Below, one piece after another: positions 22,430 through 39,465 of a stretch of 64,000 bases of DNA (position 1 is its first letter; the number at the start of each line of letters is the position of its first letter). The stretch is from an uncultured Bifidobacterium sp. (GTDB lineage Bacteria; Bacteroidota; Bacteroidia; UKL13-3), in NCBI GenBank assembly GCA_964529175.1, contig CAZGVO010000010.1, forward strand, positions 127,933 to 191,932, given 5' to 3'. Under the pieces are notes generated by a model that saw only the letters and a program-made list of their open reading frames with translations, did no database searches and was not told the DNA's origin. The position numbers and the translations under genes are program-made.

Positions 22430-22538
22430 TACGACAAAATATTTTTTTTTCTATAAAAATGTCGTATTGTTGTGTGTGGGAAAAACGTATAAATCAACAA
22501 GAATAAATAAAACATATGCTAGCACAGAACCAGTTTCT

Positions 22539-22991: not shown

Positions 22992-23449
22992 TGCAATTAT
23001 TTAGATTTGGGATTGAAACTTATATAAATGATATAAGTGGATATGGAGCAAAATTATATGGAGGAAGATGGAATAATGTAGGTAATGCAATGCTTTACAC
23101 TGCTTGCTCTCCTTCATTAGCTATGTTAGAATTTGTATGTAATGCAAGTGGAATAGCAAAAACTGTTCAGACAAGTTTGTTAACTTTAAAACTTGATAGC
23201 AAGGTAAAACTTGAACAATTAACCGTAAATGAGATGCCTGAAAATTGGCAAGATGTTCCTGCTCCAGATATTTTAAAAAGAATTGGTGATAATTGGCTTA
23301 AAGGTAATACTTCAGTTGGTATAAAAGTTCCTTCGGCAGTAATGCCAATTGAGTTTAATGTGTTAATTAATCCTTTGCATAAAGATTTTTCAAAACTAAC
23401 TATTGAAAATATAGTTAAAATGGATATTGATAAACGAATAATCAAATAA
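22991..23449 (+). CDS. RES domain toxin (NAD+-degrading family)
   Basis: YGGRWN (Arg), LAMLE (Glu) and KVPSAVMPIEFNVLINPLH (Ser) match the R-E-S domain layout. Confidence 0.88.
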   Translation: MQLFRFGIETYINDISGYGAKLYGGRWNNVGNAMLYTACSPSLAMLEFVCNASGIAKTVQTSLLTLKLDSKVKLEQLTVNEMPENWQDVPAPDILKRIGDNWLKGNTSVGIKVPSAVMPIEFNVLINPLHKDFSKLTIENIVKMDIDKRIIK

Positions 23450-25334: not shown

Positions 25335-26073
25335 AATTGTATTCGGCTAATTTATTGTTTATTATGTTATAAACTTGGTTTTTTAATTCATCTACGTTTT
25401 CCAATGTCATGCCTTTGGTTGAAATTGGTTTGTGAATTATTTGGTATCCGTGTCCTGGTTTTCCTTCAAAAACTCCTTGATCTGGCAATATATTATTGTT
25501 TCCAACAATGGTAACAGGCAATATATCTATTTGTTTTTCAATGGCTAATCTAAAAGGGCCATCTTTAAATTTTATCAATTTAGGTACTTGGTTTGAAATG
25601 GTTCCTTCTGGAAAAATAACCAAACTTCTACCACTTTCAAAAAACTTGGTAGCTTTAATATAAGCTTCGGCAGCTTTTCGAGGGTTTTTTCTATCCACAG
25701 CTATATCAATGGTTCTGAACCAAATACCAAAAACTGGAATTTCCTCCAATTCTTTTTTAGCCATAAAACTAAAATCTAATTGGTTTAATTTTACAGTTAA
25801 AGTCACAATATCTAATTGCGAGGTATGATTAGGGCAAATAATATATGGTTTAGTGGTGTCAAATGGTTCTTCAACTATTTGAGTAATTCTTACAAAACCA
25901 GTAGTTAAAAGTATTCGGCCCCAAAATCTACGAATTTTATGTCCTAAAGGATAGCGTTTAGGGTTGCTTAGAGCATATCTAATAAATGGATATAACACTG
26001 TAAATGAAAACACTGTCCACAAACCAAACCAAACCGCATAAGTTGTTTTAAAAGGATTTTTAGAAAATTTCAT
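25324..26073 (-). CDS. 1-acyl-sn-glycerol-3-phosphate acyltransferase family protein
   Basis: NHTSQLD (HxxxxD) and FPEGT acyltransferase motifs. ATG at 26073 preferred over the TTG at 26100. Confidence 0.8.
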   Translation of the reverse strand: MKFSKNPFKTTYAVWFGLWTVFSFTVLYPFIRYALSNPKRYPLGHKIRRFWGRILLTTGFVRITQIVEEPFDTTKPYIICPNHTSQLDIVTLTVKLNQLDFSFMAKKELEEIPVFGIWFRTIDIAVDRKNPRKAAEAYIKATKFFESGRSLVIFPEGTISNQVPKLIKFKDGPFRLAIEKQIDILPVTIVGNNNILPDQGVFEGKPGHGYQIIHKPISTKGMTLENVDELKNQVYNIINNKLAEYNYGN

Positions 26074-26087
26074 AGGCACAAATTTAG

Positions 26088-26729
26088 TTATTGATTCCAA
26101 GTTGATGGACTTTTACGCCAATCGTTAAGTAAAGCTAATTGCTCCGGCAAAACTATACCTTTATCAATAGCAATTTGAATTAATGTTTGGTAATTGCTTA
26201 ACGAAACATATTTGCAGTCAGCATTATTAAAAGCATTTTGTGCCTCATCAAAGCCATAAGTAAAAATGCTAGCCATTCCTAGTACTTGGCAACCATAATT
26301 TTTAAGCGTTTCTACAACTTGTAAGCTACTTTTACCAGTACTTACTAAATCTTCAATAACTACTACTTTGGTATTTGGAGCTATATCGCCTTCAATTTGT
26401 TTGCCCATTCCGTGTTTTTTAGCTTCAGAACGCACATAACCAAAAGGTAAATTTAATTCATCAGCAGCTAAAGCACCTGGAGCTATTCCGGCAGTTGCTA
26501 CGCCAATAATAGCTTCTACATCAGAAAATTGCTCTTTAATAATTTGCCCTAATGCTTTTTTTATAAAATTGCGTGCTTCAGGATACGAAAGTGAAACTCT
26601 ATTATCGCAATAAATTGGGCTTTTCCAACCACTGGCCCAAGTAAAAGGTTCGTTTGGTTTTAATTTAATTGCATTTATTTGTAACAAGTATTCCGCTACT
26701 TTTGCGGCAGTATTTTCACTTAAATTCAT
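26088..26729 (-). CDS. pyrE: Orotate phosphoribosyltransferase
   Basis: PRPP-binding motif VVVIEDLVSTGKS. ATG at 26729 (MNLSEN) preferred over the TTG at 26738. Confidence 0.9.
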   Translation of the reverse strand: MNLSENTAAKVAEYLLQINAIKLKPNEPFTWASGWKSPIYCDNRVSLSYPEARNFIKKALGQIIKEQFSDVEAIIGVATAGIAPGALAADELNLPFGYVRSEAKKHGMGKQIEGDIAPNTKVVVIEDLVSTGKSSLQVVETLKNYGCQVLGMASIFTYGFDEAQNAFNNADCKYVSLSNYQTLIQIAIDKGIVLPEQLALLNDWRKSPSTWNQ

Positions 26730-26738
26730 ATTGGGCAA

Positions 26739-27335
26739 ATGTATAAAATTTTTATAAACGATAAACCATTCATTATAGCAAATTCGGCTTTTACTGATAA
26801 TTCTTTTCCAAGTTTTGATTTTGATGAAAAATTATTTGAAACTAAAATAGCTGAAGTGTTTGCAAATCAGTTTAGTGGAGTTGTTTTTAAATGTAAAGAT
26901 GAAGAACTGGTGTTTAACAAATTTGCCAAACATTTTAAAATAATTGAAGCAGCAGGAGGGTTGGTATTTAATAGTAAAAACCAATTGCTTTTAATTGAGC
27001 GATTAGGTGTTTGGGATTTACCTAAAGGAAAAATTGAAGTGGGCGAAATACCTGAAGTAGCAGCTGTTAGAGAAGTAGAGGAGGAGTGCGCTGTAACTGG
27101 TTTAACCATTGAAAATTTGGTATGTAAAAGTTACCACACTTATTTTTTTAAAGAAAAGCACATTTTAAAACGTACTTATTGGTATAAAATGAACACTAAT
27201 TTTAGCCAAAATTTAGTACCTCAAACGGAGGAAGATATAACAAAAGTAGAATGGCAAAATTTCACTAAAAGTGATATTGAAACTTTAAATACTTACCAAA
27301 GTATTAAGGATGTTTTGAAAAAATGTTTTGAATAA
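26739..27335 (+). CDS. NUDIX hydrolase
   Basis: Nudix box GKIEVGEIPEVAAVREVEEECAV after an N-terminal extension of about 65 aa. Confidence 0.8.
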   Translation: MYKIFINDKPFIIANSAFTDNSFPSFDFDEKLFETKIAEVFANQFSGVVFKCKDEELVFNKFAKHFKIIEAAGGLVFNSKNQLLLIERLGVWDLPKGKIEVGEIPEVAAVREVEEECAVTGLTIENLVCKSYHTYFFKEKHILKRTYWYKMNTNFSQNLVPQTEEDITKVEWQNFTKSDIETLNTYQSIKDVLKKCFE

Positions 27336-27337
27336 AC

Positions 27338-27372
27338 AAAGCCATTTAGAATGAATTCTAAATGGCTTTTAA
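27338..27372. terminator. Bidirectional hairpin terminator between the NUDIX gene and comA
   Basis: 15-nt inverted arms aaagccatttagaat/attctaaatggcttt, flanked by A- and T-rich tracts. Confidence 0.75.
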
Positions 27373-27396
27373 ATAATTGATTATCAATATTTTGTA

Positions 27397-28191
27397 TTAT
27401 TTGTTCTTTTTAACAATGTATTTAGCATTTTTACCTAAAAAGAAGTTAAAAGTATCGCTTCTTAAGCCAAGTCTTAATGTTTCGCAAGGTATTACATCGT
27501 TTGGAGCAATATTTCCTAGGCTTACATTAGCACCTACTAATTTAATAAAATAGGTTTGTTGAGCCTTTTGAGGTGCTTCCCAAATAATTTTTTCTTCTGG
27601 TATTTTGGTTAAAATTTCTTGAACCAAACCCTCTCGAACTTCACCGCTACTTCTGTAAACACCCACATTTCCTGCTTCACGTGCTTCGGCAATTACTTTC
27701 CACGCACCAGCCTGAATTTCGGTTTCCATTAATTCAATCCATTGGTAAGGAGGAATAATTTTTTCTACATCTTTACTACCTACTTCACTTAATACGGTAA
27801 CATATTGGCTTAATTTGCTTATGTAATCAAGTTTAATATCGTGAGGTAATTCAATTGATCCATCCGATATTTCGGCATGAGTTAACTTAAAACGTTCTAA
27901 TACTTTTAAGTATTCATCAAACTGATTTCTTACTAAAAACGCTTCAAATAAAGTACCTCCAAAATATACAATAATGTTATTACTTTGGTAAAGTTTAATT
28001 TTTTCTTCCAAATTGGGAGTAACAAAAGCAGTCCCAAACCCAAGTTTAATTATATCTATTAGTCCGCCCGATACTGAAATTAAGTCTTCTGCTTCTCTGT
28101 AGCTCAGACCTTTATCCATTACCATTGTTAATCCTTTTTCGCGAGGTTTTGCACTTCGCTCAGGTATCATTTTAAGTTTAAAGTTGTTCAT
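27397..28191 (-). CDS. comA: Phosphosulfolactate synthase (ComA family)
   Basis: Collinear by eye with archaeal ComA: KGLTMVMDKGL, FGTAFV, GGTLFE, ISDGS, EAPQKAQQ, ETLRLGLRSDTF. Confidence 0.88.
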   Translation of the reverse strand: MNNFKLKMIPERSAKPREKGLTMVMDKGLSYREAEDLISVSGGLIDIIKLGFGTAFVTPNLEEKIKLYQSNNIIVYFGGTLFEAFLVRNQFDEYLKVLERFKLTHAEISDGSIELPHDIKLDYISKLSQYVTVLSEVGSKDVEKIIPPYQWIELMETEIQAGAWKVIAEAREAGNVGVYRSSGEVREGLVQEILTKIPEEKIIWEAPQKAQQTYFIKLVGANVSLGNIAPNDVIPCETLRLGLRSDTFNFFLGKNAKYIVKKNK

Positions 28192-28292
28192 TTATAAAAA
28201 TTTGCAAAACTGCTTTTTAGAACTGCTAAAGTATGATAAATAGTTTTTTTATTATGTATAAAATTTGTCAGGTTATTAATTAACAAATACCA

Positions 28293-30185
28293 TTAACTAA
28301 CGCTTACATAAATTGATTTAATTTCATCAGCATATTTGGTTTCTACCACTTTACGTTTAATTTTTTGAGTTGGAGTCATTTCCCCATCTTCCAAAGTAAA
28401 TGGTCTGCGCTTAATTGAATAATTTTTTACTCGTTCAAACTTTCCTAAATTAACTTCCAACGTTTTCATATCGGCATCCAACCAATCAATTACTTCCTTG
28501 TCTCTAATAAATTCATCATCTTGCTTAAAGTAATCTTCTTTAAAGTTAAATACTTCTTTCATTTCTTCTTTACTAGGAACAATCAATGCAGTTAAATACT
28601 CTTGCCTATCGCCAATTAAAAATATTTGCTCAATTTTATTTGATTTCATATAAACATTTTCAATTGGAGTTGGATACACGTTTTTACCAAACGAGTTAAC
28701 GATGATGTTTTTAATTCTATCAGTAATTTTTAAATAACCTTTTTCAAATTTTCCAACATCTCCAGTATGCAACCAACCATCGCTATCAATTGCTTTTGCT
28801 GTTTCTTCTGGTAAGTTCCAATAACCTTTCATTACGTTTAATCCACGTACCAAAATTTCACCTTCAGCACTTTCAAAGCTTGGATTAAATGATTCGTAGG
28901 TTTGAAGAGTAATAATTTCTTTGGTATCTACATTTTGAATGGCTACTTCGTTGGCTTGCCCAATACGACCTACAGTTCCCCAAACTTGGCGATGCACTTC
29001 GTTAGCACATACAAATGGCGAAGTTTCCGTTAAGCCATAACCTTCAATTACTAAAATATCTAAATTGGCAAAAAACTCCCCAACGTGTTTAGGTAAAGCA
29101 CCTCCACCACTAACCATTACACTCATTTTTCCACCCAAGCGTTCCTTAATTTTGGTGTAAACTAATTTTTCAGCTAAAGCCAATTGTAGGTTTAAAAACA
29201 GACCGTTACTTTTTCCATTTTCCTTGTTAATTCTACGTTTTTCGCCAGTGGCCAAAGCCCAATTGAATATTTTTAGTTTAAAACCACCTTGTGATGTAGC
29301 ACTTTTTCTAACACGTTCTTCTATGCGTTCAAGTAAACGAGGAACTGTTAAAATAGCACGTGGTTGAACCTCTTGAATATTGGTAGTTAAGGCTTCTAAA
29401 CTTTGCGCAAAAGCTACTTTAAAACCTTTGTAAGTACTAAAATAATAAGTACAAGTGCGCTCGTACACATGGCAAAGCGGTAAAAATGATAAAAATGTAA
29501 AATCTTTGGTAACAATTGGAAGTAATAAATCGGCCATTACTATGTTGCTCATAAAGTTATTATGGGTAAGCATAGCACCTTTAGGTTTTCCGGTAGTTCC
29601 TGAGGTATATAACAAACACGATAAATCTTCGTAAGTTACTTTTTCAAGTTCTTCTTCAATTAATTGTTTGGTACTGTCGTACAATGAAGTGCCTTCTTCA
29701 ATAACTTTATGGTATGATTTTATTTCATCACCTTCTGTATCAAAGGCTGTAATAATGGTTTTTAAAGTTGGACAATTATCTTTTACTTTTTTTAATCGTT
29801 TAAGTAAAAATGGAGTTCCTACTAAAATTGTTTTTGATTCTGAATCGTTTATAATATACTCAATATCAGACTCTGACGAAGTTGGGTAAATAGAAACATT
29901 TACTATGCCTAATTGCATTAAAGCTTGGTCAAAGCAAATATACTCAGGACAGTTTTCAATTAACAAAGCTGCTTTATCGCCTTTTCTTAAACCTGCATTA
30001 TACAAATAGGCCGAAATAGCATTAAGCTGTTCAAAAACTTGAGCATAAGTTATATCTTCATATCTGTCTCTTTTTTTTACTTGCAAATAGGTATCGCTTG
30101 GCTTGTTAATATTATTGGCAGTATTGCGCAAAAAATAATGCAGCGATTTAAAATCTTTGTATTTATCTGTAATAGTCTCGAACAT
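28293..30185 (-). CDS. Long-chain fatty acid-CoA ligase (AMP-dependent synthetase)
   Basis: YTSGTTGKPKG AMP-binding motif, GYGLTE, TGD. 630 aa. Confidence 0.85.
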   Translation of the reverse strand: MFETITDKYKDFKSLHYFLRNTANNINKPSDTYLQVKKRDRYEDITYAQVFEQLNAISAYLYNAGLRKGDKAALLIENCPEYICFDQALMQLGIVNVSIYPTSSESDIEYIINDSESKTILVGTPFLLKRLKKVKDNCPTLKTIITAFDTEGDEIKSYHKVIEEGTSLYDSTKQLIEEELEKVTYEDLSCLLYTSGTTGKPKGAMLTHNNFMSNIVMADLLLPIVTKDFTFLSFLPLCHVYERTCTYYFSTYKGFKVAFAQSLEALTTNIQEVQPRAILTVPRLLERIEERVRKSATSQGGFKLKIFNWALATGEKRRINKENGKSNGLFLNLQLALAEKLVYTKIKERLGGKMSVMVSGGGALPKHVGEFFANLDILVIEGYGLTETSPFVCANEVHRQVWGTVGRIGQANEVAIQNVDTKEIITLQTYESFNPSFESAEGEILVRGLNVMKGYWNLPEETAKAIDSDGWLHTGDVGKFEKGYLKITDRIKNIIVNSFGKNVYPTPIENVYMKSNKIEQIFLIGDRQEYLTALIVPSKEEMKEVFNFKEDYFKQDDEFIRDKEVIDWLDADMKTLEVNLGKFERVKNYSIKRRPFTLEDGEMTPTQKIKRKVVETKYADEIKSIYVSVS

Positions 30186-30465
30186 ATATTATATCATATT
30201 TACTGTTGCGAATAAAAGGCATTTTTTTGAAACTGCAATTGCAATGCTTACAAAATGGAGGTATTAAAATTGGTAAATATTACTAAAAATGCTATTTATT
30301 GTTGTAAAATTCAATAATTCATACAATTTGGCCTAATATTTGTTTGAATACAATTGTATATTTCATTAAAAAACAAGTGCATTTAATTATGAGCAAAGTT
30401 TTACATTAATGGTAATATAATTGAGTAAATTTGTTTTTGTTTTGTATAACCAAATAATTAATAAT

Positions 30466-31821
30466 ATGTCAGTTAAATCGATTTTAGCATTATTTACAAC
30501 AACCATGATTTTTGGTTCTTGTGCGCTTTTAAATCAACCTGCAACGGCTGATGATGATGTTTATTACACTAATTCCAATAATTTAATAGGTGTTGGAGCG
30601 TCTAAAATTCCAACTGTTGATTTAGAGAAAATTAAACGCGAAAATCCTTCGTTAATAGATACTACCAAACCCTCTGGATATAATAATATGGAGGAAACGG
30701 CTAATCCAAGGGCGGTTTTGGGATATTCTGCCTACAAAGCAACTCAAGATTCAATTTACAAACAACATCCAGAATATTCGGGTTATTATCAACCTTATTC
30801 AATGCCACCTTTTAGTTTGAGAGAAGAGTATTTGCGTTTAAAAGCTGAGCGTAGACAACAAAGAAGATTAGCTAGAATTAATAACAGGCGTTACTACGGA
30901 TATAATAATTACTACAACCAAGGCCCAGGTTTTAATTATGGTTACAATAATTTTGGTTACAATAACTTCTGTAATCCTTGGTACGGAAACACAGGCTGGG
31001 GTTATAATAATTGGGGTCCAACTTTTGGTTTTGGTTGGAATACATTTAATGGCTGGAATGCAGGCATAGGTTTTGGTTACAATAATTTTTATAATCCTTG
31101 GGCTTTTAATAATTATTATTACAATCCATGGGGATATTATAATAATTACAATCCTTACGGGTATTATAATAACTATTACCCAAGTGGAAATGGAGGAGTT
31201 GACAATAGAAATAGTTCAGGTCAACATGGGCAAAATCAACCTCGTCAAGTTGTTGGCTCTAATTTACCCTCAACTAATGGAGGAACCATTGATAATCCAA
31301 ATCCTAACCCACTTAAATTAGCTCCTAGAGCTCCTAATGCAAATGGTGACGTTTTAGATAATAACCAAGGTCAACCCAATCAGGTTAGGGTTGTTGGATC
31401 TGGAGGTACACTTGTAAATACTGAAAGCGGTGTTCAATATGTAGCTCCTCGTTCTGAAAATGCTACACCACAAAGTTATCCTACTTACGAGAGGTCTGTT
31501 GAGCAAAATAATGCCCAAAACGAATACAGAAGAGCCAATCCTCAATATGCTGCTCCGGCTCCTGTTCCTGCTGAAACACCAAGAGTAAACAATTCAAATT
31601 ATTCGCAACCTAATTACAATTATCAGCCAAATAATAGTCAGCCTACTTATTCTCAACCATCAAATAATTATAATCCACCAGCTTATAGTCAACCTAGCTA
31701 TAATACTCCTCGTTCTAATGGTTCATTTAATGGAGGAGGGGGCAATAGTGGTGGAGGTGGAGGAAGAAGTTCTGGTGGAGGAGGTTCTTCTGGAGGCGCA
31801 CCTGTTTCTAGACCAAGATAA
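30466..31821 (+). CDS. Low-complexity Asn/Tyr/Gly/Trp/Pro-rich lipoprotein (prion-like composition)
   Basis: ATG at 30466 gives MSVKSILALFTTTMIFGSC (signal peptide plus lipobox Cys19). Residues about 143-240 are almost only N/Y/G/W/F/P. SQPxY repeats and a Gly/Ser tail follow. Confidence 0.6.
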   Translation: MSVKSILALFTTTMIFGSCALLNQPATADDDVYYTNSNNLIGVGASKIPTVDLEKIKRENPSLIDTTKPSGYNNMEETANPRAVLGYSAYKATQDSIYKQHPEYSGYYQPYSMPPFSLREEYLRLKAERRQQRRLARINNRRYYGYNNYYNQGPGFNYGYNNFGYNNFCNPWYGNTGWGYNNWGPTFGFGWNTFNGWNAGIGFGYNNFYNPWAFNNYYYNPWGYYNNYNPYGYYNNYYPSGNGGVDNRNSSGQHGQNQPRQVVGSNLPSTNGGTIDNPNPNPLKLAPRAPNANGDVLDNNQGQPNQVRVVGSGGTLVNTESGVQYVAPRSENATPQSYPTYERSVEQNNAQNEYRRANPQYAAPAPVPAETPRVNNSNYSQPNYNYQPNNSQPTYSQPSNNYNPPAYSQPSYNTPRSNGSFNGGGGNSGGGGGRSSGGGGSSGGAPVSRPR

Positions 31822-31860
31822 TTTTAGTCCATATTTTATTAAATTTTTTTGAATCAATTT

Positions 31861-33390
31861 ATGAAAAAAATATATTTGGTAATGGCATTATTATGCCTTT
31901 CGAGTGGGGTTTTTGCCCAAAACGAACAAGATGCATTACGTTATTCTCAAAACAAAGTTTTTGGTACTGCTCGTGTTCAAGGTGCTGGTGGTGCTTTTGG
32001 AGCTTTGGGAGCTGATGCAAGTGCAATTGCTATTAATCCTGCTGGTATAGCTTTATACCGAAAAACTGAAATTTCGGCAAGCTTGGGAATAAGTTCTTAC
32101 TTTAACGATTCTCGTTACATTGGCACCAGTTCTACTGAAACAAAAACAGGTTTAAATATACCTCAATTTGGAATTGTGCTTACAAAAATACAGCAAGGTT
32201 TAAAGGGAGATGAAACCAAAGGTTTGGTTAGTTATTCGTTCGGTTTTGGAATGAATAGATTGAACGATTTCAATCAAAATTCGAACTTTACGGGAGTTAA
32301 TACAAAATCGAGCATTGCTGATTATTTTGCAGAGCAAGCTAATGGACAAACTTTTCCTAGTACCAATTCATTTGCCTCATATATTAATAATATTCCAGGA
32401 ATGGCTTGGAACACTTATTTAATTGACTCAATTGGGGTTAAAAAATATGGCTCAACTTTTAAAAGTAATAATGATACTAATTTCTCTATCCGTCAATCCA
32501 ATATTTCAAAAGTTTTAGGTAGAATAAACGAATACAATTTCTCAAGTGGATTAAATATTTCAAATACAATTTATGTTGGAGCTTCACTAATTTTTCAAAA
32601 TATAAATTACGAAAGTAAAAGTACTTTTTACGAAAACGTAATTAGTAAGAGTAGCGCAAACAATCTTTACAATTCAAGCGAGTTTGTTTCAACATTAACT
32701 ACTTCAGGTACAGGAATTGGAGGTAGATTTGGATTAATTGTAAAGCCAATTGATTATTTAAGACTAGGTTTAAGTTATATCACTGCGGTAAGATTAAATT
32801 TAAAAGATGATTATGGATATGCAATAAATTCAGTAGTTAATGGAAATAATTACAATTACAGCCAATATGCAGTATCAAATTATTATGAATACGATATTGT
32901 AACACCCTCAAAATTAACAGTTAGTGGTGCCTTTATGCATCCTAAATTAGGTTTTATTTCAATTGATTGGGATAGAGTTGATTACACATCGGCTAGGTTA
33001 ACTTCAGGCAGTAATTTGTTTGCCAATGCAAACGATGCTATTAAAACTAATTATAGAGCTGCCAATAATGTGAGAATTGGTGCTGAATTGAAATATTTAA
33101 ACACTAGATTTAGAGGTGGTTATAGTTATTATGAATCACCATTTAACTCTACTTCCTTGGGAGTTTCGTTAGATAATCCTACCCAAAGTGTTTCTGGTGG
33201 TTTAGGGTTTTTGTTTCCATCAATAGATAATTTTGGATCTGACTTTTTTATAGATGGGGCATTAACTTATACTTGGAATAAAAATTACCAAACTCCTTAT
33301 CAATTAGTTGAAAAAGGAAAAACAACTTACTCTTCCGAAAATAATTTTTCAATGTTAAACGTGGTGGTAACTGCTGGTTTTAGATTTTAA
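31861..33390 (+). CDS. FadL/OmpP1/TodX-like outer membrane beta-barrel protein
   Basis: Signal peptide, N-terminal QDALRYSQ...GTARVQGAGGAFGALGADASAIAINPAG plug-like motif, alternating beta-strand pattern, C-terminal aromatic residue (GFRF). Confidence 0.55.
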   Translation: MKKIYLVMALLCLSSGVFAQNEQDALRYSQNKVFGTARVQGAGGAFGALGADASAIAINPAGIALYRKTEISASLGISSYFNDSRYIGTSSTETKTGLNIPQFGIVLTKIQQGLKGDETKGLVSYSFGFGMNRLNDFNQNSNFTGVNTKSSIADYFAEQANGQTFPSTNSFASYINNIPGMAWNTYLIDSIGVKKYGSTFKSNNDTNFSIRQSNISKVLGRINEYNFSSGLNISNTIYVGASLIFQNINYESKSTFYENVISKSSANNLYNSSEFVSTLTTSGTGIGGRFGLIVKPIDYLRLGLSYITAVRLNLKDDYGYAINSVVNGNNYNYSQYAVSNYYEYDIVTPSKLTVSGAFMHPKLGFISIDWDRVDYTSARLTSGSNLFANANDAIKTNYRAANNVRIGAELKYLNTRFRGGYSYYESPFNSTSLGVSLDNPTQSVSGGLGFLFPSIDNFGSDFFIDGALTYTWNKNYQTPYQLVEKGKTTYSSENNFSMLNVVVTAGFRF

Positions 33391-33553
33391 ATTAATATAA
33401 TTTTTAGGTTATTTATAATAATAAGTGGCTCAATTACAGTAGAATAAACCTTATTTCACACGTATTTGAGCTATTTTTTTTATTAACAAATTGTATTTAT
33501 ATTTTACTAATTGGCCGTATAGCCTTATTTTGCGTAACTAAAAATAATAAATT

Positions 33554-34972
33554 TTGACGTTAATTAAATCAATATCAGGTATTAGGGGAACAATTGGTGG
33601 GCAAAGTGGAAATGCACTTACTCCAATTGATGTTGTAAAATTTACTGCTGCTTTTGGTAGCATGATAAAGCAAGAATCTAATGATTGTAAAATTGTAGTT
33701 GGAAGAGATGCGCGAATAAGCGGAGATATGGTAAACCGCTTGGTTTGTGCTACCCTTTGTGGATTGGGAATAGATGTAATTGATTTAGGTTTAAGTACCA
33801 CACCTACTGTTGAAATGGCAGTAGTTATGGAGCAAGCCAATGGAGGTATTATATTAACAGCTAGTCATAATCCAAAACAATGGAATGCTTTAAAATTATT
33901 GAATAGCAAAGGCGAGTTTATTTCTGACGAGTTAGGTAAACAAATGTTAGCCGTAGCCGAAGGTGGTAATATTGAGTTTGCTGATGTAGATAAACTAGGA
34001 AAAATTACTGAAAAGAAAGATTACATAGCCAAACATATTGACGAAATTTTAAAATTAGATTTAGTAGATGTAGAAGCTATTAAAGCTAAAAAATTCAAAA
34101 TAGTAGTTGATGCTGTTAATTCAACAGGAGGAATAGCTGTGCCAATGTTATTGCGTGCACTTGGAGTAGATGATATTATTGAAATATTCTGCACTCCTGA
34201 TGGTAAATTCCCTCATAATCCAGAACCGCTTCCTGAAAATTTAACTGCAATTTCAAATGAAGTTACTAGAAATAATGCTGATTTGGGTATTGTAGTTGAT
34301 CCAGATGTGGATAGATTAGCTTTGGTTAACGAAGATGGTAGTATGTTTGGCGAAGAATATACGTTAGTAGCCGTAGCTGATTACATATTGAAAAATGTAA
34401 GTGATGATAATTTAAAACGCAATGGTTTTGTAAAAAACACTGTTTCTAATTTGTCTTCAACTAGAGCATTACGCGATGTTACCGAAAAACATAGTGGTTC
34501 ATACAAAGCTAGTGCTGTTGGTGAAGTAAATGTGGTTACCATGATGAAAGAAACCAAAGCTGTAATTGGTGGTGAAGGCAATGGAGGAATTATTTTCCCA
34601 GAATTACATTATGGTAGAGATGCCATGGTTGGAATTGCATTATTCTTAACACATTTAGCTAAAAGCGATAAATTATGCTCAATTTTACGCTCGTCTTACC
34701 CTGATTATACTATAGCTAAGAAGAAAATTGATTTAGATGCAAGTATCAATATTGACGAGCTTTTAAGCGGTATTCAAGAAAAATATAAAAAACAACCAAT
34801 CAATACTGTTGATGGTGTAAAAATAGAATTTGATAATGAGTGGGTTCATTTGCGTAGAAGTAATACAGAGCCTATTATTCGTATTTATGCTGAAAGCAAA
34901 AGTGAGGCAACTGCTAACCACTTAGCCGAAAAAATAATTATGGATATGAAACAAATTATTAATGGACAATAA
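33554..34972 (+). CDS. glmM: Phosphoglucosamine mutase
   Basis: SGIRGTIGG start, active-site TASHNP, DPDVDR metal loop. TTG start. Confidence 0.9.
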   Translation: MTLIKSISGIRGTIGGQSGNALTPIDVVKFTAAFGSMIKQESNDCKIVVGRDARISGDMVNRLVCATLCGLGIDVIDLGLSTTPTVEMAVVMEQANGGIILTASHNPKQWNALKLLNSKGEFISDELGKQMLAVAEGGNIEFADVDKLGKITEKKDYIAKHIDEILKLDLVDVEAIKAKKFKIVVDAVNSTGGIAVPMLLRALGVDDIIEIFCTPDGKFPHNPEPLPENLTAISNEVTRNNADLGIVVDPDVDRLALVNEDGSMFGEEYTLVAVADYILKNVSDDNLKRNGFVKNTVSNLSSTRALRDVTEKHSGSYKASAVGEVNVVTMMKETKAVIGGEGNGGIIFPELHYGRDAMVGIALFLTHLAKSDKLCSILRSSYPDYTIAKKKIDLDASINIDELLSGIQEKYKKQPINTVDGVKIEFDNEWVHLRRSNTEPIIRIYAESKSEATANHLAEKIIMDMKQIINGQ

Positions 34973-35020
34973 TAATTTGCAAAAACTAAAAACAAAGTAC
35001 TAAAAACTAAGAACTAACGA

Positions 35021-36112
35021 ATGCAGTGTGGAATAGTAGGCTTACCAAATGTAGGCAAATCAACTTTATTTAATTGCTTAAGCAATGCAAAAGCGCAAGC
35101 AGCTAATTTTCCTTTTTGTACCATTGAACCTAATGTGGGCGTTATTACAGTTCCTGATGAGCGTTTAAATGTACTAGAAAGTCTGGTTAAACCTAACCGA
35201 ATTGTACCAACAAATATAGAAATAGTCGATATAGCTGGATTGGTAAAAGGTGCTAGCAAAGGCGAAGGATTAGGAAATCAATTTTTGGCAAATATCCGTC
35301 AAACTGATGCTATTATACATGTTTTGCGTTGTTTCGAAGATGAAAATATCATTCACGTAGATGGTTCCGTTAATCCATTGCGTGATAAAGAAATTATAGA
35401 CACTGAATTGCAATTAAAAGATTTAGATTCGGTTGAAAAGAAACTTCAAAAAGTAAGCAGAGCTGCTAAAACTGGTGATAAAGAAATGATTAAAGTGGAA
35501 AATACTTTGTTAAAATACAAAGCCCACTTAGATGATGGAAAATCGGTTAGAACTTTGGAAGTAACTGATAATGAAAAAGAACATGTAGAAGATTTGTGTT
35601 TACTTACTGCTAAACCTGTTATGTATGTTTGCAACGTAGATGAAGCATCAGTAGTAAACGGAAATAAATTTGTAGTGCAAGTACGCGAGGCAGTTAAGGA
35701 TGAAAATGCAGAGGTATTAATCATTAGTGCAGCTATTGAAAGTGAAATTTCTGGATTAGACAGTTATGAAGATAGAATTGCTTTTTTAAATGATTTAGGT
35801 TTAACAGAAAGTGGTGTGGCTAAACTAATTAGAGCATCATATAAATTATTAAATTTAATTACTTACTTTACTGCTGGTGTTCAAGAGGTTAGAGCTTGGA
35901 CTATTGACCGTGGTTTTAAAGCTCCACAAGCAGCAGGGGTTATTCATACCGATTTTGAAAGAGGTTTTATTAAAGCAGATGTTATTGCTTATGAAGACTT
36001 TAAAAAATATGGTTCAGAGTCGGCTTGTAGAGAAGCTGGGGCTTTACGTATGGAAGGAAAAGAGTATATTGTAAACGATGGTGATGTAATGCACTTTAAA
36101 TTTAACGTTTAA
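35021..36112 (+). CDS. ychF: Redox-regulated ATPase YchF
   Basis: GIVGLPNVGKSTLFN, DIAGLVKGAS, C-terminal TGS-like FIKA.V.... Confidence 0.95.
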   Translation: MQCGIVGLPNVGKSTLFNCLSNAKAQAANFPFCTIEPNVGVITVPDERLNVLESLVKPNRIVPTNIEIVDIAGLVKGASKGEGLGNQFLANIRQTDAIIHVLRCFEDENIIHVDGSVNPLRDKEIIDTELQLKDLDSVEKKLQKVSRAAKTGDKEMIKVENTLLKYKAHLDDGKSVRTLEVTDNEKEHVEDLCLLTAKPVMYVCNVDEASVVNGNKFVVQVREAVKDENAEVLIISAAIESEISGLDSYEDRIAFLNDLGLTESGVAKLIRASYKLLNLITYFTAGVQEVRAWTIDRGFKAPQAAGVIHTDFERGFIKADVIAYEDFKKYGSESACREAGALRMEGKEYIVNDGDVMHFKFNV

Positions 36113-36424
36113 ACTTTATCCTTCAATTTATTAGATTGAGTAAATAAAAATTACGTTTCAGTTTAAATGTAACTCTTTTGTAAATTACTAAGTTAGCTTT
36201 GTAGAGGTTTGTAGGCATAAATATTTGATTAAAACAGTTGATTTAGATAAAATATTTAGGTTTGAATAAATAATATATTGTCATATTTGTGTAACCAAAA
36301 AATGTAGTGCAACCATTGTTAACACTATATTTTACTTATGAATAACAATTAATAATCAATCATATCAACAAATAAAACAAAGAAGTAAAAACAGTAAATT
36401 AACTCAAAAGGTATTAAATTTTTG

Positions 36425-36441
36425 TAAACACTATGTGTTTA
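36425..36441. promoter_or_regulatory. Perfect 7-3-7 palindrome TAAACAC-TAT-GTGTTTA, 54 nt upstream of exbB
   Basis: Direct reading. It sits near the 3' end of a 382-bp AT-rich leader. The operator role is inferred only. Confidence 0.3.
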
Positions 36442-36494
36442 TTCAACTAAAATAATTTTATTCGCAATTAATTAACTAAAAAATAAACAAAAAA

Positions 36495-37322
36495 ATGAAT
36501 CAAACAGCAACAAAAAAAGAAGAAAGTAAAGCGGGGAGTATTTTTGCTTCGCTTGCAATTCCAATGTTAGTAGTAGTAGGTTTTTTACTATGGAAATTTG
36601 TATTGGGTAGCCCAAGTAATTTTGCCGATGGTGTAACTCGCCACACGCCAGTTAAAGAAGGTATTGGCTCAACATTAGGATTAATTTATTTAGGTGGATT
36701 TATTGTACCTATCTTATTATCGTTGGTATTAATGAGTATTACTTTCTCAATCGAGCGTTTTTTAACTATTAGCAAAGCATCAGGTAAAGGTTCTACTGAA
36801 AGTTTTGTACGTAAAGTAAAAACTCAACTTTCTGCTGGAAATGTTGATGCTGCTATTAAAGAGTGTGATGCACAGCAAGGTTCAGTAGCTAACGTTGTTA
36901 AAGCTGCTTTGAAAAAATACAAAGAAATGGAAGGCGAAAGTTCAATGGAAAAAGACCAAAAGATTTTAGCTATTCAAAAAGAATTAGAAGAAGCAACATC
37001 GTTAGAATTACCAATGTTAGAAAAAAACTTAGTAATTATTGCTACAATGGCTTCGGTATCTACGTTAGTTGCGTTATTAGGAACGGTATTAGGTATGATC
37101 AAGGCGTTCTCGGCTTTAGGTAATGCTGGTGCTCCTGATTCAACAGCTTTAGCTATTGGTATTTCTGAGGCGCTTATTAATACAGCTTTAGGTATTGGTA
37201 ACTCTGCTATCGCAATTATTATGTATAACGTATTTACAACTAAAATTGATAAAATTACTTATACAATTGACGAAGCTGGTTTCACTATTGTTCAAAACTT
37301 TGCAGCAGCACACAAACGCTAG
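36495..37322 (+). CDS. exbB: MotA/TolQ/ExbB proton channel family protein
   Basis: C-terminal three-TM MotA_ExbB core (LGTVLGMIKAF, ISEALINTALGI). First gene of an ExbB-ExbD-ExbD-TonB cluster. Confidence 0.85.
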   Translation: MNQTATKKEESKAGSIFASLAIPMLVVVGFLLWKFVLGSPSNFADGVTRHTPVKEGIGSTLGLIYLGGFIVPILLSLVLMSITFSIERFLTISKASGKGSTESFVRKVKTQLSAGNVDAAIKECDAQQGSVANVVKAALKKYKEMEGESSMEKDQKILAIQKELEEATSLELPMLEKNLVIIATMASVSTLVALLGTVLGMIKAFSALGNAGAPDSTALAIGISEALINTALGIGNSAIAIIMYNVFTTKIDKITYTIDEAGFTIVQNFAAAHKR

Positions 37323-37385
37323 TTTTATTTGCAATTAATAATTGCATATTTAAATTTTATAATTTTAAAAAAATAAAACAGACAA

Positions 37386-37982
37386 ATGGCTAAAGTAAAA
37401 GTACCTCGTAAGAGCACATCGGTTGATATGACCGCAATGACTGACGTTGCGTTCCTATTGTTAACATTTTTTATGTTAGCTACACAGTTTAAACCCGATG
37501 AACCAGTTCAGGTGTTAACGCCATCTTCTGTTGCCGAAATTCCACTTCCTGATGTTGATGTAATGCTTATTACCATTAGTAAAGACAATAAAGTTTTCTT
37601 TGATTTACAAGGAGAACAATATAAAATGACTTTATTAGATAAAATGGGTAAAAAGTATAAAATTCAATTCACTGAGGACGAAAAGAAAAAATTTGCAAAT
37701 ATGAGTAGCTTTGGTTTACCAATTGCTCAGTTGCAACAATACATTAACTTAAGTCCAGATAAGAGAAAAGACGTTCAATCAACAGGAATTCCTTATGATT
37801 CGTTAAATAACGAGCTAGGCGAGTGGATAATACAAAGTAGATATACCAATAATGGTGTACGCGTTGCTATTAAAGGCGATAGAGAGGTTAGTTACCCTGC
37901 AATAAAACAAGTAATTAGAACCCTTCAAGATAAAGATGTAAATAGATTCAATTTTATTACATCAATGGAAGGTGGTCAATAA
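37386..37982 (+). CDS. exbD: ExbD/TolR family biopolymer transporter
   Basis: N-terminal DMTAMTDVAFLLLTFFML single TM with the conserved Asp. Confidence 0.8.
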   Translation: MAKVKVPRKSTSVDMTAMTDVAFLLLTFFMLATQFKPDEPVQVLTPSSVAEIPLPDVDVMLITISKDNKVFFDLQGEQYKMTLLDKMGKKYKIQFTEDEKKKFANMSSFGLPIAQLQQYINLSPDKRKDVQSTGIPYDSLNNELGEWIIQSRYTNNGVRVAIKGDREVSYPAIKQVIRTLQDKDVNRFNFITSMEGGQ

Positions 37983-38004
37983 TTTTAAAGAAAGGAATTA
38001 AATA

Positions 38005-38661
38005 ATGGCAGAAATAGAAGGTGGCGGAGGTGGCCATAAAAAAGGTGGAAAACCAAAAGGTAAGAAACTTTCAACTAGGGTAGATTTTACTCCAATGGTT
38101 GATTTGGGTTTTTTATTGATTACCTTTTTTATGTTAACAACCTCGCTTAACAAACCAAAAACAATGGAACTGAATATGCCTGTTAAAGATCCCACAGCTG
38201 ATCCAACCCCAGTGAAAGTATCTCAAACAGTAACTGTTCTATTAACAGGTAATGACCAAGTAATGTATTATTTTAGTGATCCTGTAACATTAGATCCAAT
38301 GACTCCACAAATTACTGATTACAGTGCTGGTGGAATTAGACCAATGTTATTGGGCGAAAATAGAAAGCGAGTTCCTAATATAGATTCAGTGCAAGTTTAT
38401 AAAGATTTATTCAAAATAAACAAAATGTCTGAAGCAGATATGAAAGCTAATATTTCACGATTAAAATCTGATAAAGAAGGTTTAATTGTAATTATAAAAG
38501 CGGATGATAATGCTAAATTTAGTAATATAGTTGATATACTTGACGAAATGCTAATTTGTAATATTGGACGTTATGCTATAGTAGATATTTCGGAACCTGA
38601 AAAGGAATTAATAAAAAGTTCTGCTCCTTTATTGGAAGCAGCTTTAAAAGAAAAAAAATAA
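38005..38661 (+). CDS. exbD: ExbD/TolR family biopolymer transporter (second copy)
   Basis: DFTPMVDLGFLLITFFML motif and a C-terminal ADDNAKFSNIVDILDE segment. Confidence 0.8.
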   Translation: MAEIEGGGGGHKKGGKPKGKKLSTRVDFTPMVDLGFLLITFFMLTTSLNKPKTMELNMPVKDPTADPTPVKVSQTVTVLLTGNDQVMYYFSDPVTLDPMTPQITDYSAGGIRPMLLGENRKRVPNIDSVQVYKDLFKINKMSEADMKANISRLKSDKEGLIVIIKADDNAKFSNIVDILDEMLICNIGRYAIVDISEPEKELIKSSAPLLEAALKEKK

Positions 38662-38664
38662 CAC

Positions 38665-39465
38665 ATGGCAAATACAAGTATTTTTGATAATAATTGGGTT
38701 AATATGGTCTTTGAAGGCCGTAACCAACAATATGGTGCCTTTGTGTTGCGTAAAAAAAGTAGCAACTATACCATTAAAGGTATCATATTTTCTATTATTG
38801 GATTTTCTTTGGCAATTGCAGCACCAGTTATTATTAACTATGTAAAATCGCAAATACCAAAAGAGAATATTATAGTAGAGGCTGAGGTAACTAAGTTAGA
38901 TGCGCCACCACCAATGGATGAGGATGCACCACCACCACCACCACCACCGCCACCACCACCTCCGGTTAAGAGTACCATTAAATTTACTCCACCTGAGATT
39001 AAGAAGGATGAGGACGTAACAGAACCACCTCCAACTCAAGTAGAGTTAGAGAAAGTAGATGCGGGTTCACAAACTGTAGTAGGTGATCCAGATGCTAAGG
39101 AGGTTTTAATTGAGCCATCTGGTGATGGAAATGGTGAAGGTGAAATTTTGTTAGAAGCCGAAGTTCCAGCTGAATTTCCTGGAGGAGAAGATAAAATGAA
39201 TGAGTATTTAGCTCAAGCGGTTGAATATCCTCCAATGGCCAAAGAAAATAATATTGAAGGAAGAGTTGTTCTTAGATTTGCTGTAATGGCAGATGGTAGA
39301 ATAGACAAAATTGAGGTCTTAAATAAGCCTGCTTTAGGATGGGGCTGTGAGGCCGCAGTTGAAAAAGCAGTTAAAAATATGCCAAAGTGGAGTCCAGGTC
39401 GCCAAGCAGGTAGAGCTGTACCAGTTTATTTTACTTTACCTTTCGTATTTAGATTAGATCAATAA
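38665..39465 (+). CDS. tonB: Energy transducer TonB
   Basis: N-terminal TM anchor, Pro-rich spacer, C-terminal TonB_C (PEFPGGEDKMNEYL...YPPMAKENNIEGRVVLRF). Confidence 0.85.
   Translation: MANTSIFDNNWVNMVFEGRNQQYGAFVLRKKSSNYTIKGIIFSIIGFSLAIAAPVIINYVKSQIPKENIIVEAEVTKLDAPPPMDEDAPPPPPPPPPPPPVKSTIKFTPPEIKKDEDVTEPPPTQVELEKVDAGSQTVVGDPDAKEVLIEPSGDGNGEGEILLEAEVPAEFPGGEDKMNEYLAQAVEYPPMAKENNIEGRVVLRFAVMADGRIDKIEVLNKPALGWGCEAAVEKAVKNMPKWSPGRQAGRAVPVYFTLPFVFRLDQ
38929..38964 (+). repeat. Run of 12 consecutive proline codons, mostly (CCA)n, inside tonB
   Basis: cca x6, ccg, cca x3, cct, ccg, read directly. Confidence 0.9.

Follow-up and report, generated by a model that had tools for sequence, protein, structure and literature searches.

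A predicted disordered, aromatic-rich lipoprotein encoded directly upstream of a FadL-type outer-membrane barrel gene in Bacteroidota

The DNA analyzed here is a window of 64,000 nucleotides (GC content approximately 0.32), in which one gene encodes a protein of 451 aa with a central part composed almost exclusively of Asn, Tyr, Gly, Trp, Phe, and Pro. The question raised by this locus is whether such an unusual protein is real and, if so, what it does in the cell envelope. The first-pass annotation of the window considered it to be an envelope-anchored lipoprotein and proposed that it could form a prion-like, amyloid, or hydrogel-like matrix or act as an adhesin. The features of the gene, and of the gene that follows it, are given below.

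30466..31821, + strand: lipoprotein gene, 451 aa (ATG 30466, stop codon 31819-31821; based on the ORF list and the starts of homologues)
30466..30522, + strand: signal peptide and lipobox (IFGS-C), with Cys19 as the putative lipidated residue (C19/S18 conservation and the lipoboxes of the family)
30523..30567, + strand: uncharged tether (ALLNQPAT), then the family-wide ADDDVYY motif, residues 28-34 (alignments)
30568..30891, + strand: conserved N-terminal region, residues 35-142 (alignments, AlphaFold2)
30892..31188, + strand: uncharged aromatic/Gly/Asn/Pro low-complexity block, residues 143-241 (composition, alignment)
31189..31575, + strand: polar N/P/Q/G-rich spacer, residues 242-370 (alignments, AlphaFold2)
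31576..31731, + strand: N/S/Q/P/Y-rich region with SQPxY-like repeats, closing on the conserved YNTPRSN, residues 371-422 (composition, alignment)
31732..31818, + strand: Gly/Ser tail with terminal VSRPR, residues 423-451 (alignments)
31861..33390, + strand: FadL-family 14-strand outer-membrane barrel gene (likely ATG 31861, MKKIYLVMALLCLSSGVFA/QNE; computed TTG start 31849)

The longest computed ORF for the lipoprotein gene begins upstream, at TTG 30421. The ORF at 30466-31821 is nevertheless considered correct because all homologues begin at ATG 30466 (MSVKS/MKVKS). A low-complexity protein from a genome of about 32% GC, for which Pfam and NCBIfam return no match, might be a spurious or decaying ORF held open by AT-rich sequence. 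However, this reading has practically no chance of being right and is already refuted. Intact ORFs of 425-474 aa were present in 14 of 14 related genome loci, where the many indels were all in-frame, and the dN/dS ratio was 0.05-0.2 in every region, the aromatic block included; the gene is under purifying selection over its whole length. Furthermore, the invariant positions are sequence-specific, conservation extends across the phylum, metatranscriptome contigs span two parts of the gene (30404-30716 and 31420-31669), and the syntenic protein of Flavobacterium johnsoniae has been detected by mass spectrometry. The gene is therefore real, as the first-pass annotation had held, and the checks that it had proposed on frame conservation and on transcript or proteomic evidence turned out in its favor; its remark that the alternative-frame ORFs are short also agrees with the two overlapping ORFs found, of only 82 and 63 aa. 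The gene is expressed, and its product is an exported outer-membrane lipoprotein. In a sigma-70 promoter scan, a model that is ill-suited to Bacteroidota promoters, the score at the locus was not above that of shuffled sequence. In the 14 related loci, the lipoprotein and barrel genes both evolve faster than their neighbors.

The protein starts with the signal peptide MSVKSILALFTTTMIFGS-C19, with an invariant C19 and an almost invariant S18 (alignments A1 and A3). The signal peptide, lipobox, and invariant Cys of a signal peptidase II substrate are all present, which supports its assignment as an envelope-anchored lipoprotein. In the ADDDVYY motif, A28, D30, D31, and Y33 are invariant in the alignments; among 40 distant members, the only invariant positions are M1, C19, D30, and D31, and across the family the DDxYY motif mostly lies at +8 to +13 from the Cys. 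The region of residues 35-142 contains the motifs IPTVDxEKIKR, QDS[ILFM]Y, which matches the Bacteroidota O-glycosylation sequon, and MPPFSL, and a basic helix, EYLRLKAERRQQRRLARINNRR; the basic stretch RLKAERRQQRRLARINNRR occupies residues 124-142. AlphaFold2 placed helices here at residues 53-59, 87-100, and 118-145 (pLDDT 64-82). In the spacer, the short conserved motifs are PRQVxGSNLPxTNGGTIDNPNPNP, GTLxNTxxGVQYxAPR, and ANPQY, the second of these forming a modeled hairpin (residues 315-326), and a helix is modeled at residues 345-357 (pLDDT ∼55-69). The SQPxY-like stretch covers approximately residues 380-412, and in the tail R449 and R451 are invariant, the terminal basic cluster being a hallmark of the family. 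The lipobox, basic stretch, SQPxY region, and Gly/Ser tail had all been recognized in the first-pass annotation. The mean pLDDT of the lipoprotein is 45, and taking low AlphaFold2 confidence as disorder, we predict that most of the chain is disordered.

The aromatic block contains 26 N, 23 Y, 18 G, 9 F, 7 P, and 7 W, no charged residue, and one aliphatic residue. N, Y, G, W, F, and P together account for 91 per 100 aa, whereas the other ORFs of the window average 26.8 and reach 46 at most, so the composition first noticed from the sequence is far above chance expectation. The block has a conserved core, GPxxxFGWNxFNGWNxGIGFG, with G184, G204, and P211 invariant and P185, G190, N192, G196, W197, N198, G200, and G202 nearly invariant. 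Its dN/dS was 0.05-0.17 in pairs without saturated dS, and its pLDDT was ∼30, with no beta structure in the model. Its estimated interfacial free energy was -29.6 kcal/mol, against +18.8 ± 14.4 kcal/mol for windows of other ORFs, and the family median was -31.6 kcal/mol. Across 53 family members, Asn varied from 0 to 31% and dropped as genome GC rose (rho = -0.57), whereas the aromatic content stayed at a median of 44%. The conserved property of the block is thus its aromatic character rather than Q/N, and because Asn tracks genome GC while the aromatic content is constant, the Q/N flavor is filler characteristic of low-GC lineages.

The homologue search with the lipoprotein gave 37 clusters, and the family as a whole comprises approximately 119 clusters at 50% identity with a common architecture: a signal peptide, usually with a lipobox (93 of the 119 representatives); DDxYY about 10 residues past the Cys; an uncharged block of ∼100 residues that contains Gly and Pro beside some 40% Tyr/Phe/Trp; an extended polar spacer in which short motifs are conserved; and a Gly/Ser tail with a terminal Arg, R or K occurring within the final three residues in 96 of 119. 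We propose to define these Fjoh_4940-like, barrel-coupled aromatic disordered proteins by five features: a signal peptide or a lipobox; DDxYY located between +8 and +13; an almost uncharged block containing 18 or more Y/F/W per 60 aa; a Gly/Ser tail running to R/K; and a FadL-type barrel gene immediately downstream. The window lipoprotein has all five. Members were found in Flavobacteriia, in Cytophagia such as Hymenobacter, in Bacteroidales, and in at least one locus labeled Ignavibacteria. Pfam and NCBIfam searches matched neither the window protein nor 40 diverse members, and the family has no curated model in these databases; a search of PDB sequences with the lipoprotein profile gave compositional noise only (E ≥ 0.1). 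A search of the literature for Tyr-rich disordered lipoproteins of Bacteroidota turned up only the EL3 loop of BamA and a passing mention of Fjoh_4940.

The barrel gene begins 39 nt past the lipoprotein stop codon, a terminator scan detected no terminator-like site between the two, and metatranscriptome contigs also lie over the barrel gene (32129-32291 and 32823-33008). The single barrel sequence scored 24.5 bits with the Pfam model Toluene_X, under the cut-off of 29.7, and had no match in the PDB by phmmer; a family profile was needed, and this matched TbuX (7e-11) as well as FadL and CymD, with no BamG chain at E ≤ 1. The AlphaFold2 model of the barrel (pLDDT 86.6) gave Foldseek matches to FadL, PaFadL, TodX, TbuX, and CymD at 5e-16 to 1e-12, and the NPA motif (N63-P64-A65) is invariant in 28 members of the barrel family. 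The 14 strands, N-terminal hatch, sequence match, and NPA motif of FadL/OMPP1/TodX proteins were all found. It was also observed that BamG, a non-transporter, is structurally as close to the model (7e-16) as FadL is (5e-16), and this closeness counts against reading the barrel as a channel. The fold, N-terminal hatch, and NPA motif are common to E. coli FadL and the TodX/TbuX/CymD channels, whereas the partner barrel is ∼60-80 residues longer than these and is extended at its N terminus by the conserved QNExDALRYSQ. We know of no dedicated partner protein for the classical FadL channels; in contrast, the subfamily described here always has one.

This pairing was evident from gene order. Distant homologues of the lipoprotein lie in varied genomic contexts, always with a barrel homologue directly 3', and when metagenome loci were searched with the barrel profile, 57 of 57 assessable loci had an upstream ORF ending in R/K, which contained the aromatic block in 54. 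The lipoprotein is thus obligately paired, as operon partner, with a distinct FadL-type barrel subfamily, and the synteny with the downstream barrel that the first-pass annotation had suggested looking for is real. Apart from the barrel gene, the sole deeply conserved neighbor is proS; it is oriented divergently to the pair in 28 of the 31 long loci and is uninformative about function. In the lineage of the window, the pair no longer adjoins it. Around the lipoprotein gene, the window contains the FadL-type barrel gene and glmM-like, ychF, and FadD-like genes. The FadD-like gene adjoins the pair, as does an AMP-binding gene in locus L027, and a patatin gene lies immediately 3' of the barrel gene in six loci. 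These lipid-related neighbors are lineage-specific, and the FadD-like gene was rejected as a general functional clue because it is confined to its lineage (2 of 80 loci). Cell-wall genes (Amidase_3, YceG) are close to the pair in some loci only. Gene order was identical among 14 GTDB loci, which is uninformative because all are close relatives.

In Flavobacterium johnsoniae, the same gene order is found: proS (Fjoh_4939), the signal peptidase II lipoprotein Fjoh_4940, and the 55-kDa FadL-type barrel Fjoh_4941. Based on this synteny, we infer that Fjoh_4940/Fjoh_4941 is the counterpart of the pair. Single tryptic peptides of Fjoh_4941 gave no significant alignment to the barrel family, but two that are adjacent on the barrel, joined as one query, aligned to the homologous position. 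The probable orthology of the lipoproteins is drawn from synteny together with these peptide matches to Fjoh_4941. Depletion of TamL raises both proteins in F. johnsoniae, and the only suggestion made about them is that they are possibly functionally linked (PMC12045153).

Surface-exported lipoproteins of Bacteroidota follow an empirical rule of at least two acidic residues within ∼6 residues after the lipidated Cys (PMC12578637). Because the window lipoprotein has no acidic residue at +1 to +6, it is considered to be without this export signal, and 81 of the 82 members with a lipobox likewise fail the rule, the first acidic residue usually being at +9 to +12. The DDD at +10 to +12 might be a displaced export signal. 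One abundant variant is cleaved by signal peptidase I and is not lipidated; its mature protein starts at QDDDVYF. Fjoh_4940, which also has no surface-export signal, was detected by mass spectrometry and classed as periplasm-facing by manual check (PMC12045153). These observations suggest that the lipoprotein has its anchor in the outer membrane's inner leaflet and faces the periplasm.

We therefore favor a periplasm-facing disordered lipoprotein that serves as the partner of a FadL-type channel for hydrophobic substrates, a mechanism to which we give about an even chance. The anchor in the inner leaflet would leave the chain in the periplasm, where, by conjecture, the tether and the DDxYY segment may keep it docked to the barrel. 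The aromatic block would then be not an amyloid but a sticky segment, drawn to the membrane interface or able to bind hydrophobic molecules. The block could receive or pass on hydrophobic cargo, such as a fatty acid or lipid, released sideways into the membrane by the FadL channel, or alternatively condition the membrane around the channel, while the polar spacer and the basic tail would extend deeper into the periplasm. The FadD-like/AMP-binding and patatin neighbors and the response of Fjoh_4940/Fjoh_4941 to TamL depletion hint weakly at a lipid link.

Because the family always lies directly upstream of a FadL-type barrel gene, such a channel partner is more likely than the prion-like surface matrix envisaged in the first-pass annotation, namely a surface-anchored amyloid, hydrogel, or adhesin that would assemble by itself through the N/Y/G-rich block. 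Of the 99 residues of this block, 39 are aromatic, 26 are Asn, and none is charged; such sequences are established drivers of self-association, which is physically plausible here, and the rapid evolution of the two genes relative to their neighbors is common for surface proteins. However, we consider this matrix very unlikely. Q/N-rich prion-like domains have at least 30 Q + N in an 80-residue window by the Michelitsch-Weissman criterion, whereas the maximum in the lipoprotein is 25, and its Asn is the GC-dependent filler described above. Pro and Gly are scattered throughout the block, the model has neither beta structure nor a beta-solenoid, repeats in the DNA are weak (27-30 nt, 2-3.5 copies), and neither CsgA/Fap repeats in the protein nor CsgG/E/F, FapF, or other curli- or Fap-type secretion genes near the gene were found. 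The obligate link to the barrel, the absence of both the surface-export signal and a T9SS C-terminal domain, the existence of a non-lipidated variant, and the periplasmic classification of the syntenic F. johnsoniae protein (PMC12045153) also speak against a surface matrix.

Two further readings keep the barrel as a partner, and both are possible but improbable. In one, the pair would be an accessory of outer-membrane biogenesis or homeostasis like BamG-BamH, the barrel serving as a scaffold and the Tyr/Gly-rich chain acting like the EL3 loop of BamA, which is disordered and enriched in Tyr/Gly/Asn in 861 Bacteroidota homologues. The BamG proteins of P. gingivalis, B. thetaiotaomicron, and F. 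johnsoniae are among the top Foldseek matches, and the pair is phylum-wide, lies beside a housekeeping gene, and goes up on TamL depletion. BamG-BamH and its paralogues encoded by adjacent genes, BamG2/BamH2 (Bt1785/Bt1786), also combine a FadL-fold 14-strand barrel with a lipoprotein whose lipidated N-tail is held by the barrel (PMC12578637, PMC12611786). In contrast, the resemblance to BamG is structural, with the profile matching TbuX, FadL, and CymD at the sequence level and the barrel retaining the FadL NPA motif. BamH has two folded domains, is exposed on the surface, and carries a surface-export signal, whereas the window lipoprotein is predicted to be disordered and lacks that signal; EL3 is extracellular, whereas a periplasmic location is predicted for the lipoprotein; and neither protein is among the BAM subunits reported to co-purify with BamA in the text covered from the two papers (PMC12578637, PMC12611786). 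In the other reading, which we find similarly doubtful, the barrel would anchor the lipoprotein, which would serve the envelope as a structural or sensory element: as a spacer, tether, or gel in the periplasm, or as a stress sensor resembling RcsF, with a disordered chain that touches the barrel or passes through it. A disordered chain of ∼430 residues, an invariant C-terminal basic cluster behind a flexible Gly/Ser linker, induction under envelope stress in F. johnsoniae, and the Amidase_3 and YceG genes of some loci would suit this role. However, the protein has no peptidoglycan-binding domain, the FadL barrel lumen is plugged by its own N-terminal hatch, the cell-wall neighbors are not conserved, and the conserved aromatic content of ∼44% would be left unexplained.

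The channel-partner reading also has a parallel outside Bacteroidota. VolA of Vibrio cholerae is reportedly a lysophospholipase, and its gene is said to adjoin a fadL homologue. VolA has been described as a lipoprotein for the use of exogenous lipids in a paper that often mentions FadL (PMC3656444). VolA is folded and lies on the surface, whereas the window lipoprotein lacks an enzyme domain and is, by prediction, disordered and periplasmic.

Barrel-lipoprotein pairs in the outer membrane, such as SusCD and BamG-BamH, are a distinguishing trait of the Bacteroidota envelope, and to our knowledge, the lipoprotein is folded in every characterized pair. In the family described here, a FadL-type channel has as its obligate partner what appears to be a disordered chain conserved for its extreme aromatic density. 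In composition only, the block resembles the Tyr/Gly-rich "sticker" domains of FUS-like low-complexity proteins, FG nucleoporins, and mussel foot protein 3, being un- or weakly charged and predicted disordered, with dense aromatics spaced by Gly/Asn/Ser/Pro. It has no homology to any of these, its aromatic density (∼40%) is much higher than in FUS or FG domains, and it is predicted to be periplasmic and membrane-tethered beside a channel. A rather improbable extension of the channel-partner reading is that the uncharged, tethered block (∼40% Tyr/Phe/Trp) forms a small greasy phase, similar to a condensate, on the periplasmic side of the outer membrane by the FadL lateral gate, and that this phase carries hydrophobic molecules between the outer membrane and the periplasm; if true, this would be a bacterial selective phase based on stickers and would explain how FadL substrates leave the outer membrane. 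In F. johnsoniae, the pair is amenable to genetics and could be used to follow the onward route of hydrophobic substrates from FadL channels, and the lipoprotein is a clean natural example for work on low-complexity "stickers" in a bacterial periplasm.

Finally, the analysis corrects two misleading annotations of homologues, "Prolyl-tRNA synthetase" and "YgcG." The latter, a JGI name, would imply a TPM phosphatase domain, for which neither the window protein nor 40 members had a Pfam match; the name probably derives from the Gly-rich tail.

The longest ORF ending at 31821 begins at TTG 30421, in a window with a GC content of ∼32% throughout. Because homologues all begin at a Met matching ATG 30466 (MSVKS/MKVKS), the coordinates 30466–31821 (451 aa) of the first-pass annotation are correct, and all the segments it described were found:

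Segments of the lipoprotein
Signal peptide and lipobox, IFGS-C19, + strand
Basic stretch, RLKAERRQQRRLARINNRR
Aromatic block, residues 143–241, nt 30892–31188, + strand; N 26, Y 23, G 18, F 9, W 7, P 7
Polar N/P/Q-rich region
SQPxY-like repeats
Gly/Ser tail, C-terminal end VSRPR

The aromatic block contains no charged residues and one aliphatic residue. N, Y, G, W, F, and P reach 91 per 100 residues in the lipoprotein; the remaining window ORFs of ≥ 150 aa average 26.8 and none exceeds 46, so this composition is far beyond the local background. At the DNA level, the gene has only weak repeats of 27–30 nt.

The view that the ORF is real was borne out. An ORF of 425–474 aa was intact from the lipobox through SRPR in 14 of 14 related loci, drawn from a species-representative genome collection, despite numerous indels. 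A closely related population (public run X3) carried a 12-nt in-frame insertion (GGTTTTAACTAC) at 30939, within the aromatic block, together with a 3-nt in-frame deletion at 31748, within the Gly/Ser tail; the low-complexity parts change length yet retain the reading frame. The Nei–Gojobori dN/dS was 0.05–0.2 in each of four regions of the lipoprotein, and 0.12–0.17 in the aromatic block (pairs with unsaturated dS). The alignments revealed conservation at specific sequence positions, beyond mere common composition:

Conserved elements of the lipoprotein
N-terminal part: C19, ADDDxY, IPxVD, QDSxY, MPPFSL, KAERRQQRRLARINNR
Core within the aromatic block: GPxxxFGWNxxNGWNxGIGFG
After the block: PRQVIGSNLPxTNGGTIDNPNPNP, GTLIxTPNGVQYxAPR, ANPQY, PRSN, terminal SRPR

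AlphaFold2, with a 36-sequence alignment, predicted disorder (mean pLDDT 45; ∼30 in the aromatic block), with only short helices at residues 53–59, 87–100, 118–145, and 345–357 and a hairpin at 315–326. The lipoprotein is a real, exported, mostly disordered protein under purifying selection, and the intact ORFs in relatives, low dN/dS, and sequence-specific conservation refute a spurious ORF. Two metatranscriptomes contained contigs 95–99% identical to parts of the lipoprotein and barrel genes, which is weak evidence of expression because DNA carry-over is possible.

We analyzed the pairing of the lipoprotein with the barrel across loci. The 14 related loci (L001–L014), compared with positions 26000–38000 of the window, have identical gene order, and because these genomes are close relatives, they tell little about linkage. 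In the same genomes, the lipoprotein (47–85% identity) and barrel (67–92%) have changed much faster than the housekeeping genes beside them (85–99%). The contexts of distant lipoprotein homologues differ, yet a barrel homologue lies directly downstream of each. In Bacteroidales and other lineages, barrels with only 30–40% identity each follow a 400–560-aa protein of the same architecture, none with a Pfam domain. A lipoprotein profile search of 1.84 billion representatives yielded 119 clusters, including 33 at E ≤ 1e-10. A lipobox was present in 93 of the 119, a density of ≥ 18 aromatic residues per 60 aa in 109, and Arg in the last three residues in 96. The strongest test of pairing was the reverse one, in which 80 metagenome loci were gathered with the barrel profile alone. 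Wherever there was enough upstream DNA (57 loci), a same-strand ORF ending in R/K occurred 6–190 nt upstream of the barrel (57/57), with an aromatic block in 54, a lipobox in 46, and a DDxYY-like motif in 46. The synteny check proposed in the first-pass annotation thus showed an obligate link, and we consider the pair an ancient, obligate module. Of 31 long loci, 28 had the prolyl-tRNA synthetase gene next to the pair in divergent orientation; in the window's lineage, this gene is not adjacent to the pair. In one clade (L015, L016, L019, L033, L034, and L036), a patatin-like phospholipase gene lies directly 3′ of the barrel gene, overlapping it by 4 nt in L015, with LptD, MlaD, and OlsF-like acyltransferase genes close by.

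The barrel gene (∼510 aa) begins 39 nt downstream of the lipoprotein gene, and no terminator-like site was found between them. The neighbouring genes are as follows:

Genes flanking the pair
Within 27397–30185, − strand: AMP-binding (FadD-like) gene, 630 aa, divergent, upstream of the lipoprotein gene
Within 27397–30185, − strand: ComA-type (2R)-phospho-3-sulfolactate synthase gene, adjoining the AMP-binding acyl-CoA-synthetase-like gene
Downstream of the barrel gene: phosphoglucosamine-mutase-like gene, then ychF

This arrangement of the ComA-type and AMP-binding genes is restricted to the window's lineage and may have to do with cysteate or sulfonolipid metabolism. An ExbB-ExbD-ExbD-TonB cluster (36495–39465, +) lies three genes downstream of the barrel; no sign of its linkage to the pair was found outside this lineage. 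A toxin-antitoxin pair is located at 22467–23449 (+), with an Xre/MbcA/ParS-type antitoxin (22467–22991) directly followed by a RES-domain toxin (22991–23449).

The barrel scored 24.5 bits against Pfam Toluene_X, under the threshold of 29.7. However, a profile of 28 relatives matched TbuX in the PDB at 7e-11, and also FadL and CymD; the AlphaFold2 model was a confident barrel (pLDDT 86.6, pTM 0.80); Foldseek matched E. coli and P. aeruginosa FadL, TodX, TbuX, and CymD (5e-16 to 1e-12); and the FadL NPA motif (N63-P64-A65) is invariant within the family. On these grounds, the barrel belongs firmly to the FadL family. BamG of three Bacteroidota BAM complexes was equally close (5e-16 to 1e-12), and PorV was much weaker (3e-4).

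To characterize the conserved property of the aromatic block, we analyzed the most aromatic 80-residue window of each of 53 members. Median Y+F+W was 44% (range, 27–51%), independent of GC, with 17.5% Gly, 7.5% Pro, 2.5% acidic, 0% basic, and 3.8% aliphatic residues. Asn ranged from 0 to 31% and was lower with higher GC (rho = −0.57, p = 9e-6); the Asn richness seen here is therefore filler of low-GC lineages, and the selected property is dense uncharged aromatic/Gly/Pro sequence. Since Q+N also peaks at only 25 per 80 aa, the prion-like reading of the first-pass annotation was not supported. With Wimley–White interfacial values, the block scored −29.6 kcal/mol (family median, −31.6), against +18.8 ± 14.4 (minimum, −19.1) for other ORF windows, so it should partition strongly to the membrane interface or bind hydrophobic surfaces.

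Surface export in Bacteroidota follows a rule of ≥ 2 acidic residues within ∼6 after the Cys (PMC12578637). This rule was failed by 81 of the 82 lipobox members, in which the first acidic residue was mostly at +9 to +12, inside the DDxYY motif. The Bacteroidota O-glycosylation sequon is D-[ST]-[AILVMT]; the nearly invariant QDS[ILFM]Y matches it where I, L, or M occupies the third sequon position. The match agrees with export and gives no information on the membrane side.

In Flavobacterium johnsoniae, Fjoh_4939 is a proline-tRNA ligase, Fjoh_4940 an SPII lipoprotein of unknown function, hand-checked and classed as periplasm-facing, and Fjoh_4941 a FadL homologue (PMC12045153). Mass spectrometry detected both of the latter, which increased 2.6-fold and 5.6-fold, respectively, on TamL depletion; the authors propose only a possible functional link (PMC12045153). 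We infer from synteny that Fjoh_4940 is the orthologue of the lipoprotein. Fjoh_4941 has a mass of 55 kDa, and two of its tryptic peptides (PMC12611786 supplement), neighbours on the barrel, when joined aligned to barrel residues 357–374 and the equivalent region of other members (z = 3.8–10; 0 to 2 of 500 shuffles scored as high).

Systems that pair a lipoprotein with an outer-membrane barrel are known; no earlier description of a phylum-conserved, disordered, ∼40% aromatic partner is known to us or was found in the literature searched. We propose that the lipoprotein faces the periplasm, where its tether and DDxYY would dock it near the barrel, and its spacer and basic tail would extend into the periplasm. 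The aromatic block would be a non-amyloid element that seeks the membrane interface or binds hydrophobic molecules, serving the channel's hydrophobic cargo. TamL-depletion induction and, in some lineages, FadD-like and patatin neighbours hint weakly at lipids.

BamG, a FadL-fold barrel, grips the lipidated tail of the lipoprotein BamH (PMC12578637, PMC12611786), a likeness to the present pair. Extracellular loop 3 of Bacteroidota BamA, which is disordered, Tyr/Gly/Asn-rich, of unknown function, and conserved in 861 homologues (PMC12578637), resembles the aromatic block in composition. We nevertheless consider it unlikely that the pair is a BAM-like biogenesis accessory, and equally doubtful that the lipoprotein is an envelope tether or sensor. 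A surface form of the amyloid-like protein suggested in the first-pass annotation is the least probable of the three and quite improbable, given the failed surface-export rule, the GC-tracking Asn, and the predicted disorder. The cargo-serving role is a proposed mechanism for a well-defined family directly testable in F. johnsoniae.

The family is uncurated: none of 37 homologue clusters (search of 5.8 billion proteins) had a Pfam domain, and 40 diverse members gave no Pfam or NCBIfam match. Its members are obligately paired with a FadL-type barrel of a distinct kind. Named members include three Hymenobacter species. In L029 (2986–6216), a locus labelled Ignavibacteria, two tandem Tyr/Gly-rich lipoproteins precede the barrel. 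An abundant variant (1,425 member sequences; L027, 5001–7834) is cleaved by signal peptidase I and not lipidated, with the mature end QDDDVYF; because it has no T9SS domain, it has no known route to the surface. A 55-aa ORF separates it from the barrel. Public annotation of some homologues (P0012, P0014, P0018, P0028, P0031, and P0299) is misleading. The JGI name “uncharacterized membrane protein YgcG,” given to several members, was rejected because the TPM domain is absent, and the UniRef name “Prolyl-tRNA synthetase” of a Hymenobacter metallilatus member was presumably taken from the neighbouring gene.
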